A model generated the notes under the pieces. That model ran no database searches, had not been told where the DNA came from, and saw nothing but the letters and a program-made list of their open reading frames with translations. Shown in pieces: positions 3 to 12,013 of a stretch of DNA of 48,617 nt (its first letter is position 1; each line of letters opens with the position of its first letter). The translations under genes were made by a program, and so were the position numbers. Where the stretch lies: assembly GCA_016215205.1 (NCBI GenBank), contig JACRKU010000029.1:1-48617 (forward strand). The letters are read 5' to 3'. Source of the DNA: Candidatus Yonathbacteria bacterium. Lineage in GTDB: Bacteria; Patescibacteriota; Minisyncoccia; Phycocordibacterales; UBA1550.

Positions 3-1682
3 AATCCGAAAAGCAAGGAACATTTTTTCTTTTTGGGGTTGCCGAGTGAAGCGAGGCAGTGGCGGAACGATACGAGCGTACGATTTAGTTTCAAGCCACC
101 ACGCGCTCCGCGCGTGCCTCATTCGGGATTCTGCTGGAAATAAGTCCGAACTTTTTGGTATAATGACCACCAAAGATGATTTTTTGTCAGCAAAGTGCTG
201 ATTTAGTTCGTAGATGACTCCTAATTTCGTGGTTCCAAATCCTTTACCACGCTCATACGGCACACCCTCGGGGAATACCAGCTTCTGGAACTTCGGTTGT
301 AGTTGTGGCACAAGGTCAAACCATTGTCGGCCAAGGTCGGTTATAAACTTGGTGGCATAAATTAACGCGGCCTCAATATCAAATTGCTCAATCCTTGCTT
401 CGCTTAGGGAAATCTTGGTAGTGGCAAATTCGTTCTCCATTTCTTCTTTACGTTCAACAAATTCCTCTTTGGTATAGGACCCGTCCTCTCGCATTTCGTA
501 GATACGTTTTTTCTTTGCCTCGATAAGCTCTAGTTGTTTTGTCCATTTCTCGGCTTCAAGTTCAAACTTCTTACCTTTCTCTTTCCACGCATCGAGTACG
601 CTCTCTTTAAATATCTGTAGCCAATTTTCTTTTGGTGTTATCCGTTCCAGATGAGCTAAGAACTCTTTTTCAAGTTCGAGTTTTGGTATGCCTTTGCCAA
701 ATACGGCACATTCTTTATTTAGGCAGTGGTAATAGGAATATCGGCCACCATTACCTCGAGGCGAGCTTCCGGTGAGTGCCCTCGAGCAAACTCCGCACAT
801 GACCGTTCTTCTAAGAGGAAAGGTTGGATTATATTTGTTGTACTTCATCATCGGCCTCTTTTTACCGGATCGGATAAGAAGAACCTGATACATTTCTTCT
901 TTCGTGATCATTGGCTTATGTTGACCATCGACGTCTTTGCCAGTCCACGGATTGGCAATTATGCCAGCATAAAACTTTAGGTGTTTGCTAAAGAGTCTGT
1001 CTATCAGCTGGGGAGTACTTTTCTTGCCGGTGATATCTTTCAAACCCCACTCATCTAGCTTGCGAGCTAGTCCTACTTGGGAGTGCAGTCCCATACCATA
1101 TTCTCTTAATCCTCGTTGAATGATTGGGAATATCTGCTCATGTGGCGGATCAGGTTGAGTCTTTTTCTCACCACGCTTCTTGAAGTTGGCACACTTATAT
1201 CCTATCGGTGGCTTCCATGGGAATATGCCTTGGTTGATTCGTGCCATCATTCCATCACTACAGCGTTGCTTACGTATTGCATTATCAAATTCGGCGATAC
1301 CGGCAAGGAATGTCTCTAATAATTTTGCTACAGGTTCATTGCCGATTGGCTCGGTAACGGAATGAAGGGTAACTCCATAGGTTGCGAGGATTTTTCTTAT
1401 GGCGAAGTGGTCATCGGCATTTCTAGCAAATCTATCTACACGCAAAACAACAAAGGCTTGGACCTTATCTTTATTCTTGCGACAAAATTCCAACGCCTCA
1501 AGAAATTTCTTTCGGTTCTGAAGACTCAAGTCTTTTGCGCTTTGGCCTTCCTCGCAAAAAACTAGGTCAATTTCAAGACCTTTTTCTTTGCAGTATTTTC
1601 GGCAAAGTTCCTCTTGGTGTTCCAGTGAGGTTCCTTTTACCTGTTCATCGCTTGATACTCTTGTGTAGATTACTGCTTTCAT
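3..1682 (-). CDS. Large serine recombinase (resolvase + recombinase + Zn-ribbon + coiled coil); open to the window edge, so absent from the ORF track
   Basis: Manual translation from ATG 1682: MKAVIYTRVSSDEQ (catalytic Y-x-R-V-S-S), LRVDRFARN, GIFPWKPPIGY, CGVC...HCLNKEC Zn ribbon, then KSSLV at 182-168. No in-frame stop in the stretches I translated, including 3-242. Confidence 0.92.
   Translation of the reverse strand, partial: MKAVIYTRVSSDEQVKGTSLEHQEELCRKYCKEKGLEIDLVFCEEGQSAKDLSLQNRKKFLEALEFCRKNKDKVQAFVVLRVDRFARNADDHFAIRKILATYGVTLHSVTEPIGNEPVAKLLETFLAGIAEFDNAIRKQRCSDGMMARINQGIFPWKPPIGYKCANFKKRGEKKTQPDPPHEQIFPIIQRGLREYGMGLHSQVGLARKLDEWGLKDITGKKSTPQLIDRLFSKHLKFYAGIIANPWTGKDVDGQHKPMITKEEMYQVLLIRSGKKRPMMKYNKYNPTFPLRRTVMCGVCSRALTGSSPRGNGGRYSYYHCLNKECAVFGKGIPKLELEKEFLAHLERITPKENWLQIFKESVLDAWKEKGKKFELEAEKWTKQLELIEAKKKRIYEMREDGSYTKEEFVERKEEMENEFATTKISLSEARIEQFDIEAALIYATKFITDLGRQWFDLVPQLQPKFQKLVFPEGVPYERGKGFGTTKLGVIYELNQHFADKKSSLVVIIPKSSDLFPAESRMRHARSAWWLETKSYARIVPPLPRFTRQPQKEKMFLAFRI
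156..164 (+). promoter_or_regulatory. Extended -10 promoter motif TGGTATAAT pointing at the left junction
   Basis: Perfect TGn-TATAAT; predicted start ~170-171. Confidence 0.5.
167..170. repeat. Candidate left attachment core (CCAC, context GACCACCA)
   Basis: Shared with GTCCACAA at 12107-12114; lies at integrase codon 505. Confidence 0.65.
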
Positions 1683-1755
1683 ATTTTTGTAAGGCCTAGA
1701 TTGCAAACACACCCTATACTATTTCTGTCGACAGGCTAAGCTCGGTTGCCCACAG

Positions 1756-2187
1756 CTACTTACTGGTGCTTTTCCGCTTTATTTTCTCTAGTATCTTTTC
1801 AAGCTCGAGATACTGCCCGGTGCCATCGGCTTCATCCTCCGGTTCTTTGTTCACTCCAGTTTTGCCAAAGCAGTAGTCGAGGATAGTTTTAGCGGCTCTG
1901 AATTTCATTGTATCTTTTTTACTTCCCATGAGGGCAATGATCATGGTAGCGGCCACCTCGACCTTTTTCTTAAATATACTATCGACCACTGAATCGCACA
2001 TTGCATTCGTTTCCTTTTCGTAAGCATCGTACTCGTCTTTGAGTAAGCCACTCGGGCGGAACCACCTTTTTACCGTCACCGGCGAGACTAGGAGTAATTG
2101 TGCTATTTCGGGATAGGAAAATCCCTCGTATTTGAGATGAACTGCTTTCTGGTATTTTTGATTTTTTATGTCTATTGTTTTTGTCAT
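1756..2187 (-). CDS. HTH protein resembling a phage terminase small subunit
   Basis: N-terminal HTH (GFSYPEIAQLLLVSPVTVKRWF) plus TerS-like helical motif AATMIIALMGS..DTMKFRAAKTILD..FGK. Confidence 0.5.
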   Translation of the reverse strand: MTKTIDIKNQKYQKAVHLKYEGFSYPEIAQLLLVSPVTVKRWFRPSGLLKDEYDAYEKETNAMCDSVVDSIFKKKVEVAATMIIALMGSKKDTMKFRAAKTILDYCFGKTGVNKEPEDEADGTGQYLELEKILEKIKRKSTSK

Positions 2188-2191
2188 ATGG

Positions 2192-2307
2192 GTATCATTT
2201 AGTATCGTTTGTGGTAATTAACTTTCTCGTTTTTGGTGTTAGTTAGTGTTAGTTGGTGTGAGTACTTTTCCTCAAAATGTTGCCGTTTGTTGCGGATTGT
2301 TGCCGAT
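2192..2307. repeat. Three arrays of 10-bp tandem repeats (candidate iterons/origin)
   Basis: GTATCATTTA/GTATCGTTTG (2192-2211); GTGTTAGTTA/GTGTTAGTTG/GTGTGAGTAC (2236-2265); TGTTGCCGTT/TGTTGCGGAT/TGTTGCCGAT (2278-2307). Confidence 0.75.
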
Positions 2308-3105
2308 TTAGCCACTTTCACCGGCTATTGTGAGGAGTGAGTTAAAATATGCACCCTTCTTTTGGATCGACCTTTCTGGACTATCACGCATGAGCTTGTA
2401 AGTTTGCTCAAGCTTGGCCAATCCATGCTTTCGGAGTGCTGAAAGCATGAAGCTCATATCAACTTCCTCTAGGTACCGAGCAATCTCAAGACACTTCTCC
2501 TCTTCAAAGGTTCTTGGACTGAAACTTCTTACGGGACGACGAGTCGATCGATTGTTTTTATTTTCTTTCTCGTTATCGTTCTTAGGACTTCTGCCAGACG
2601 AACTTTCAGAAGTGAAAGAAAACCTTTCTACCAAAGCATTTTTATCGCTTTCCAACTTCTGCCGAACATCACCTACTTCTGTCGGTGCCTCTGCCAGAGA
2701 TTGCTCATCAGTAGCGTCCACACTTCTGCCGGACTTCTGTTCAAAGCGATGTTCAATATACTTAAATGTGCCGTCGGATAAGGGATAATTGCCGATATCC
2801 ACATGGAACGAACTTCTGCGACCTTGTTGTCCAGCAAACCATACCCACTTCTTCCGCTTAAGGTTTAACATCAGCCGGTTGATATGGTTCTTGGAGTATT
2901 TCTCTTTGAAATCTTTTGAAAGACCGGCATAACTTACTTGGGCCCGGCCGTTCCGGGGATTGGCGTTGACCCAAAGCCAGACCAAAACCGAGTATTCTTC
3001 AAACTTCAAATAACCGTCTACAAGGGCGGTTTTAATGCTTCGGGGAAGCTTTACGTAGTCGTTATTGTCTATTTTGAAGGGTAGATTTTCCATATTCATA
3101 TTCAT
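2308..3105 (-). CDS. Putative replication initiator (N-terminal wHTH, low-complexity linker, small helical C-domain)
   Basis: YVKLPRSI..EEYSVLVWLWVNAN..SYAGLS..INRLMLNLKRKKWV wHTH and C-terminal SIQKKGAYFNSLL, typical of phage/plasmid Rep architecture. Confidence 0.55.
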   Translation of the reverse strand: MNMNMENLPFKIDNNDYVKLPRSIKTALVDGYLKFEEYSVLVWLWVNANPRNGRAQVSYAGLSKDFKEKYSKNHINRLMLNLKRKKWVWFAGQQGRRSSFHVDIGNYPLSDGTFKYIEHRFEQKSGRSVDATDEQSLAEAPTEVGDVRQKLESDKNALVERFSFTSESSSGRSPKNDNEKENKNNRSTRRPVRSFSPRTFEEEKCLEIARYLEEVDMSFMLSALRKHGLAKLEQTYKLMRDSPERSIQKKGAYFNSLLTIAGESG

Positions 3106-3120
3106 TCGGCCGGACCGGCT

Positions 3121-3384
3121 TTAATTCATCGCATCGTTATACATAAGCGATTTAAGTTCTTTAATGGCCGACACAAATTCCTTAGCGTTGACTTCGACCA
3201 AGCCCGCAAAGAAAGCGCTTACCAACTGGGGACGATCCGGTTCATTGGTAAAAATAAAATGAAACCGGCGTGAGTCGGCTTTGTCTATGCCCAGCAATCT
3301 ATATCCCTTGGCGACGAGAAAAGCGGCCGCGTAGAAGTCGCTGGTAGTAAAATTATTGTTGTCCGGCTGGTTTTTCATTTTCAT
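3121..3384 (-). CDS. DUF5659-like small protein
   Basis: FTTSDFYAAAFLVAKGYRL.GIDK...RFHFIF...FFAG.VEVNAKEF..AIKELK matches my recollection of this CPR-element family. Confidence 0.65.
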   Translation of the reverse strand: MKMKNQPDNNNFTTSDFYAAAFLVAKGYRLLGIDKADSRRFHFIFTNEPDRPQLVSAFFAGLVEVNAKEFVSAIKELKSLMYNDAMN

Positions 3385-4366: not shown

Positions 4367-4417
4367 ATTATGACAAAAGACGGCGATTTTGACAATGAAC
4401 TTGGAAAGGGATAAAAT
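4367..4417. promoter_or_regulatory. Back-to-back sigma70 promoters with overlapping -35 boxes
   Basis: + strand: TTGACA(4389-94)-N17-TAAAAT(4412-17). - strand: TTGTCA(4395-90)-N17-CATAAT(4372-67). Confidence 0.7.
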
Positions 4418-11839: not shown

Positions 11840-12013
11840 CGTCCCACGCTCTCAAATTTGGTCTTACGGCTTGGACCGGGTGCAATAGGTGTCAAACATT
11901 TACTCTTGGCACAAAGCTCGCTACAAGGGCAACCAGTCGGGCAGAAAGCGGGTTAGTTAGAGTTGGTTCGGATGAGTACGTTCACAAGGGTCTCAAAATT
12001 CGCTACAATGGCA

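Follow-up and report, generated by a model that had tools for sequence, protein, structure and literature searches.

Conserved, 10-bp phased repeat arrays behind a rep-like gene in an integrative element of Patescibacteria

Results

The element and its backbone

The window that we analysed is one whole contig (C20, 48.6 kb) of a 611-kb genome that is 95% complete in 29 contigs. Its left ~12 kb form an integrative element, whose minus strand encodes a large serine recombinase, a 143-aa HTH protein, a 265-aa rep-like protein, a DUF5659 protein and two more small genes. Beyond this backbone, the plus strand carries a divergent HTH_17 gene and then a restriction-modification system and ATPase cargo. 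Two near-consensus promoters lie back to back at 4367-4417 and have their -35 region in common (TTGACA-17-TAAAAT on the plus strand, TTGTCA-17-CATAAT with TG on the minus strand); this pair is likely where the element mainly switches between its backbone and cargo operons. The features that concern us are the following:

3..1682, minus strand: large serine recombinase (integrase; Pfam Resolvase, E 8.7e-28, and Zn_ribbon_recom)
1707..1755, minus strand: conserved motif upstream of the integrase, CTGTGGGCAAC-N5-GCTTAGCYTGTC-N8-TAGTATAGGGTGT
1756..2187, minus strand: TerS-like gene of type TerS1, 143 aa, with an N-terminal HTH and a helical C-terminal part
2189..2211, minus strand: array 1, the 18-nt conserved box GATACTAAATGATACCCA, with two GATAC 10 nt apart
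2233..2265, minus strand: array 2 (family A2), sense CACACCAACT AACACTAACT AACACC, core ACACYAA, 2.8 copies at period 10 in Tandem Repeats Finder (TRF)
2266..2277, minus strand: spacer between arrays 3 and 2, sense TTTTGAGGAAAAG
2278..2307, minus strand: array 3 (family A3), directly after the rep stop, sense ATCGGCAACA ATCCGCAACA AACGGCAACA, core GGCAAC, 3.1 copies in TRF
2308..3105, minus strand: rep-like gene, 265 aa, with an N-terminal winged-helix domain, a disordered linker and a C-terminal four-helix domain
2587..2818, minus strand: in-gene iterons in the DNA that codes for the wing and the linker, six sense copies of CAGAAGT (consensus sGCAGAAGT) and one inverted copy
3121..3384, minus strand: DUF5659 gene, directly upstream of the rep-like gene (Pfam PF18903, E 2.8e-13)

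To place the element among its relatives we fetched 104 related loci, 24 of them in genomes that span many CPR lineages and 80 in metagenomes; 88 of the loci are complete in the interval between rep and the integrase gene. Without exception they come from Patescibacteria (CPR) MAGs, from lineages that include Gottesman-, Vogel-, Nomura-, Falkow-, Magasanik-, Komeili-, Yonath- and Saccharibacteria. The gene order is the same in all of them: DUF5659, the rep-like gene, a variable slot, a conserved motif (CTGTGGGCAAC..GCTTAGCTTGTC..TAGTATAGGGTGT) and the integrase. Across the many CPR classes that carry this backbone the rep-like proteins are 58-88% identical; the family has 179 close relatives at 67-88% identity and, more widely, 327 clusters at 50% identity. 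DUF5659 adjoins rep in nearly all relatives, subfamilies at 28-44% identity included. The integrases fall into three unrelated serine-recombinase types (~29-34% mutual identity) that are freely combined with the rest of the element. We found no relatives of rep in IMG/VR or among annotated phages and plasmids, and no paper on this element family. The family is widespread in ultra-small bacteria and undescribed so far.

Two distant relatives depart from this plan, since their rep-like gene stands beside a tyrosine integrase in place of the serine recombinase. In one of them (L155) DUF5659 accompanies the rep-like gene; in the other (L156) the upstream gene is cut and has no Pfam record. Such pairings indicate that the replication module is older than the integration module and independent of it.

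Phased repeats between rep and the TerS-like gene

The spacer between the 265-aa and the 143-aa genes measures 120 bp (2188-2307). An earlier note on this DNA had described three arrays of 10-mers in it, with exact 10-nt spacing, and they are present in the sequence as claimed. Read on the plus strand, they are:

2192-2211, plus strand reading: array 1, GTATCATTTA GTATCGTTTG, two copies
2236-2265, plus strand reading: array 2, GTGTTAGTTA GTGTTAGTTG GTGTGAGTAC, three copies
2278-2307, plus strand reading: array 3, TGTTGCCGTT TGTTGCGGAT TGTTGCCGAT, three copies

Array 3 indeed abuts the stop codon of the 265-aa gene (TAA, 2308-2310, minus strand), and array 1, in this first reading, ends 4 nt before the ATG (2185-2187) of the 143-aa gene. 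Arrays 2 and 3 keep a period of 10 with zero indels in TRF. For a period of 10 bp the spacer has an autocorrelation of 0.518, whereas 5000 dinucleotide shuffles gave 0.312 +/- 0.040 and never as high a value (z = 5.1). In fact, the spacer takes the first rank for 10-bp periodicity among 20,280 genome windows of 120 bp each, where the runners-up are A-rich low-complexity DNA. The pattern GCAACA-N4-GCAACA-N4-GCAACA occurs once in our window, with 0 expected, and a strict detector of triple 10-mers, run over ~250 kb of related loci, found arrays in the interval between rep and the integrase only.

Some details of the first description have to be revised. The repeats cover ~80 of the 120 nt and so do not fill the intergenic space, and the 10-mers are not wholly unrelated, since most units loosely fit NNNCAACNAA. 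Array 1, with two copies only, is a different kind of element from arrays 2 and 3.

Phased A-tracts were considered as a source of intrinsic bending and rejected: AA/TT power at 10-10.5 bp in the arrays of the window is not above that of shuffles.

A modular field under selection

Arrays 2 and 3 belong to a modular field. Of the 88 complete relatives 38 (43%), spread over the Patescibacteria classes, have this field downstream of the winged-helix rep-like gene and ahead of the integrase. Up to six families of triple 10-mers make up this field, always in the same order and orientation: A3 (motif sGCAAYA), A2 (ACACYAA), A4 (AAACCC), A5 (TTACAG), A6 (TACAAC) and A7 (GATAAATRG). The A4 cassette in relatives, for example, reads AAAACCCNNN three times. 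Cassettes gain or lose whole 10-nt units, from 2 to 4, and are separated by conserved spacers such as TTTTGAGCAAAAA, which in the spacer between arrays 3 and 2 is invariant among ten TerS-less relatives (pi = 0). The A2 cassette recurs in ~30 related loci with 2-4 units and zero diversity at its core positions; the A3 cassette is conserved in ~25 relatives.

Over the non-coding field of the ten TerS-less loci pi is 0.137, against 0.336 at the four-fold sites of rep (0.476 in the part encoding the N-terminal domain), and it falls to 0 at the core positions of the field. The field is thus under purifying selection. In all array families A and C abound on the sense strand and G is scarce (46% A, 26% C, 12% G); the sense RNA of the arrays is unstructured, with no match in Rfam. 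The arrangement in the window, A3x3-A2x3-A1-TerS1-Int1, is unique among the 88 loci and is a mosaic: the last codons of rep and the arrays match the TerS-less type, and the body of rep matches another group. Taken as a claim about DNA, then, the first description has stood: the arrays are real, conserved and selected DNA-level repeat sites of a mobile element, with array 1 tied to TerS1 and the field under selection.

The arrays do not follow their neighbours

The earlier note had read the arrays as an iteron origin, a packaging (pac) site or both, bound by Rep or by the TerS-like protein, and had proposed that co-variation in homologous elements would tell. For arrays 2 and 3 this comparison came out against both readings. 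Arrays 2-7 are missing from 50 of the 88 relatives despite a nearly invariant Rep DNA-binding domain and, where they are present, array families change while the Rep N-domain stays almost constant. None of nine distant subfamilies sampled (28-44% identity) has triple 10-mer arrays downstream of rep. With respect to TerS, the arrays are present in 17 of 18 loci that lack any TerS-like gene and absent from 34 of 43 TerS1 loci, and the array families show no link to TerS type; nor do integrases predict them, as each of Int1-3 is found both with and without arrays.

An unbiased screen of gene clusters found as its strongest association a negative one, between arrays and TerS1 (p = 1.8e-8, uncorrected for phylogeny and inflated, like all such association statistics here, by the non-independence of the loci). 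All-against-all clustering of 2,087 ORFs from 62 loci, upstream genes included, revealed no positive partner gene for the arrays; the sole positive matches were artefactual ORFs that overlap them. Since they co-vary with neither protein, arrays 2 and 3 would not be cognate to either neighbour, be it as iterons of the Rep-like protein or as a site of the TerS-like protein.

A box at the start of TerS1

Array 1 behaves differently. Its 18-nt box is found in 45/45 TerS1-bearing loci and in 0/53 others, and it ends 1 nt before the start codon of the TerS-like gene in the window and 1-2 nt before it in relatives. Copies of the box are on average 98.9% identical in pairwise comparison, while the adjoining ORF reaches 61% at its third codon positions. 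In 34 relatives the spacer between rep and TerS1 is only 21 nt long (AAGATACTAAATGATACCCAA), so that the box is essentially all of it. On sequence grounds, array 1 belongs to the TerS1 cassette and is strongly constrained, at the place where a ribosome-binding region would be. Most likely it would serve as a gene-specific leader box at the TerS1 start codon, that is, as an operator or a translation-control site. If the packaging reading holds anywhere in the spacer it is at array 1 at most, which co-occurs with TerS1 as a cognate pac site would, though the box is physically fused to the gene.

The TerS-like protein itself matches phrog_2538 ("terminase small subunit") over its full length with an E of 1.6e-8 (1e-10 to 4e-11 for its relatives). 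Pfam reports Sigma70_r4_2, HTH_23 and Terminase_5 only, so the TerS assignment rests mainly on the HTH domain. The element has no large terminase or capsid gene. TerS1 lies downstream of the array field; genes of the TerS2 and TerS3 types lie upstream of it.

A promoter-like site, TTGTCA-16-TATCGT, runs antisense to the operon at 2181-2208 on the plus strand and overlaps both the TerS1 start and array 1. Relatives carry an equivalent (TTGCCA-16-TATCTT), and an RNA antisense to the 3' end of rep could be its product.

Repeats that do follow Rep lie inside its gene

The Rep-like protein has no match in Pfam, PHROG or NCBIfam, and sequence and profile searches of the PDB were empty. From a deep alignment AF2 predicted a winged helix (aa 10-125) and a C-domain of four helices, joined by a disordered linker (~aa 126-190), with a pLDDT of 83.8; the model from a shallow alignment was poor (pLDDT 52.8) and had no structural matches. 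Foldseek neighbours are generic winged helices of the MarR/ArsR/PadR/TubR type.

Within this gene lies a second set of repeats. Seven of the ten CAGAAGT in the 48.6-kb window fall within 232 nt (2587-2818), six of them on the coding strand. These GCAGAAGT boxes, 6-7 copies in all, occupy all three reading frames (GRS, QK, TEV), and synonymous diversity is halved in the part of rep that bears them. Their positions are conserved in all relatives, down to 28% identity, with the last two copies ~68 nt apart family-wide. The motif, by contrast, changes with the Rep subfamily and its predicted recognition helix, reading GCAGAAGT, GCAGAACT, ACAGAGGT, TCACAGGT, TCACAACT or TCACAACC. The boxes at 2587-2818, inside the initiator gene, are thus likely the best candidate for an origin in the element. 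With Rep-matched repeats inside the gene and arrays that do not co-vary with Rep behind it, an origin reading of the arrays is unsupported.

The motif upstream of the integrase

Nearly all loci have the motif of 1707..1755, whichever of the three integrase types follows it, and it contains a GGGCAAC box that resembles an A3 unit. TerS-less relatives have an inverted A2 unit and an A3-like GGGCAAC box at this place, a hint of factors common to the arrays and the motif. Three identities for the motif were tried and rejected: a sigma-70 promoter (by hand no -35/-10 pair had an acceptable spacing, and a promoter search gave no match), attP (the motif is intact in integrated copies) and coding sequence (the reading frame is not conserved).

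Discussion

We propose that the spacer combines two kinds of conserved cis-element, a TerS1 leader box and accessory cassettes of phased sites, with the Rep origin elsewhere, a reading that we would trust about as much as doubt. The backbone of the element consists of the DUF5659 gene, the winged-helix rep-like gene, a variable slot and the integrase, and in 43% of relatives the array field fills the slot. Each triplet would present its sites on the same face of the DNA, where about three copies of a small sequence-specific DNA-binding protein could stack head to tail. Arrays 2 and 3 might then be accessory sites, architectural or regulatory, that serve the terS-int module downstream, and the initiator's own iterons would reside inside rep, in the manner of lambda O/ori. 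Accessory, phased and putatively protein-binding sites are favoured because the arrays are selected, specific to one interval, modular, phased at 10 bp and devoid of RNA structure.

As a kind, phased direct-repeat arrays of mobile elements are already known; what is new here is a variant in an undescribed CPR element family. In TubR-tubC, ParR-parC, StbA-stbS and the X1-X1.5-X2 sites of lambda Xis, ~3-5 direct repeats of about one helical turn each carry a head-to-tail protein filament. One structural neighbour of the Rep-like N-domain is TubR itself, but binding to the arrays is only putative here. Unlike these systems, which use one family of boxes, our elements string up to six in series. 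Scans with Pfam, PHROG and NCBIfam found no ParA, ParM or TubZ among the genes of the element, which sets it apart from centromeres, and its arrays lie ~2 kb from the att junction, unlike the Xis sites.

Could it nevertheless be that the excised element starts its replication at the arrays, with the neighbouring Rep-like protein bound there as in SaPIs and PICIs? The resemblance is real: the element is small and integrative, has genes for an integrase, a Rep-like and a TerS-like protein, and bears short direct tandem repeats immediately behind a winged-helix gene. Moreover, the A3 units (CGGCAACA) have sGCA in common with the in-gene GGCAGAAGT boxes, and those of some relatives read CGGCAGTA. 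SaPI iterons, however, are specific to their Rep, whereas the arrays here are optional (38/88) and do not depend on Rep: the Rep DNA-binding domain is near-invariant, yet 50 of 88 relatives do without them, as do the distant subfamilies, and array families vary while Rep is unchanged. It is the repeats inside the gene that co-vary with Rep, and the agreement between A3 and in-gene boxes (5-6 of 9 positions) is within chance once shifts are allowed. The element differs from SaPIs and PICIs also in its integrase, a serine recombinase, and in that a primase-helicase domain and a capsid-remodelling gene were not found in it. The earlier note was thus right that tandem repeats abut the winged-helix gene, but the arrays are neither universal nor matched to Rep, and we consider an iteron origin at this place quite improbable.

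The in-gene boxes, rather than the intergenic arrays, are what recalls lambda. There, too, an initiator whose DNA-binding domain is N-terminal and joined by a linker to a C-terminal domain has its boxes in the middle of its own gene (nt 349-433 of O, nt 288-519 here), and the boxes change with the type of initiator. This likeness is one of layout, since homology between the proteins is not detectable (hhalign probability 1%, E 0.053; no match to Pfam Phage_rep_O with 63 family members), and the boxes are irregularly spaced direct repeats of 8-9 nt here but 18-bp dyads in lambda.

Packaging deserves somewhat more credit, although we still think it unlikely that a small terminase, be it that of the element, of a co-resident element or of a helper phage, recognises arrays 2 and 3 as pac-type sites. 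Multi-box phased pac sites are known from P1 and SPP1, and the P1 hexamer clusters and SPP1 pacL/pacR resemble our arrays in having several short phased boxes, in two clusters close to a small-terminase gene. The arrays adjoin TerS-like genes with PHROG matches to TerS (E 1e-8 to 4e-11), and array 1 is strictly linked to TerS1. Even the complementary distribution, with arrays in 17 of 18 TerS-less loci and none in 34 of 43 TerS1 loci, would make sense if elements without a TerS of their own were the ones to depend on arrays. Against this, the array families do not follow TerS type, unlike boxes read by a cognate terminase, and arrays occur in TerS-less elements; both count against the pac reading of arrays 2 and 3 in the form given by the earlier note. 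The TerS assignment comes mostly from an HTH domain, the element lacks capsid and large-terminase genes, rep relatives were not found in IMG/VR, and in contrast to P1 and SPP1 we identified neither packaging machinery nor a helper phage. Mimicry of a helper-phage pac had no support in viral collections either, as scans of IMG/VR for the A2 and A3 patterns returned unrelated tandem repeats only, with other flanks; in one viral contig that we checked, unrelated too, the A2/A3-like repeat overlaps the 3' end of a small ORF.

If no partner is encoded in cis, it might be sought in other elements. The triplets could mimic the iterons of other Rep subfamilies, so as to titrate the initiators of competitors or to permit replication in trans. 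Arrays are indeed optional and combinatorial, a cis-encoded partner was not found, and some in-gene iterons look familiar: TCACAACT and TCACAACC resemble A6 TTACAAC and A2 CACCAACT, and TCACAGGT resembles A5 TTACAGTT. Nevertheless, across nine sampled subfamilies no in-gene iteron is identical to an array unit, matches at 6-7 of 8 positions between short A/C-rich motifs amount to weak similarity, and in-gene iterons are irregularly spaced whereas the arrays are strict 10-bp tandems, so we give this cross-talk little credence. Slightly broader, and still distinctly unlikely in our judgement, is the idea that the field is a combinatorial library of boxes for foreign Rep-type initiators or small terminases, with one "address" per cassette. 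If this were true, an element could choose whom to exclude, by decoy or incompatibility, or to exploit, by replication or packaging in trans, and array-bearing TerS-less elements would live as hyper-parasites on relatives that have TerS, or on CPR phages.

The arrays might also act in RNA, as a C-rich, G-poor and unstructured intercistronic stretch that loads Rho or serves as a translation leader and sets the polarity of terS-int expression. The C/G ratio of 2.2 and the weak folding (MFE -7.6 kcal/mol, where 120-nt windows of the operon have -22.7 +/- 6.0) fit this idea, as does the position of the arrays within an operon in which no promoter or terminator was found between rep and terS. An exact 10-nt tandem period with family-specific cores is, however, not expected of a rut site or a leader, and Rfam gave no match. 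A Rho-dependent terminator or rut site was rejected, because PF07497 was not found in the 95%-complete genome and was matched in control genomes. An RNA-level element thus appears scarcely credible to us.

Returning to the accessory phased sites that we prefer, what might they do? A regulatory or architectural role for arrays 2 and 3 is plausible, if tentatively so; a packaging-related role is rather doubtful; an accessory role in replication, such as copy control or incompatibility, is unlikely, and some other role is unlikely to about the same degree. Direct control of an int promoter would be less natural here than in TerS-less relatives, because ~480 nt, including the TerS gene, separate the arrays from the integrase control motif. 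The uniform A/C richness of the sense strand is not accounted for by a pure double-strand binding model; it could reflect a constraint at the level of RNA or single strands, or common ancestry of the units.

Mobile elements of Patescibacteria are almost unstudied, and the cis-acting anatomy of a widespread backbone is now defined, including a candidate origin inside the initiator gene with boxes matched to the protein. The optional triple 10-bp cassettes are mixed and matched in a pattern that suggests a specificity code. Should a protein that binds them come to light, the cassettes might account for compatibility, exclusion or hitch-hiking among islands that carry anti-phage cargo. For annotation, the lesson is a warning: not every repeat array behind a rep-like gene is an origin!

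Further observations at the ends of the element

Near the right end of the element (11926-12010) there is a degenerate look-alike of array 2 and its spacer (GGGTTAGTTAGAGTTGGTTCGGATGAGTAC...CTCAAAAT), with GGGCAAC and GGCAGAA boxes just upstream. As a second copy of array 2 (11950-12010) it was rejected, for the local alignment is marginal (score 39, against 25.3 +/- 3.6 and a maximum of 36 in shuffles).

At the left end, the open frame of the integrase (3-1712, minus strand) runs without a stop up to the start of the contig, and its homology to the integrases of relatives ends at ~167; integration thus seems to replace the C-terminal tail of the integrase. In the host flank left of the element (68-123), a ~50-nt stretch recurs at 1497-1546 of contig C9, at 24301-24344 of contig C14 and in a related locus (L011). 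It is a small repeat dispersed in the host and may have some connection with the integration target.
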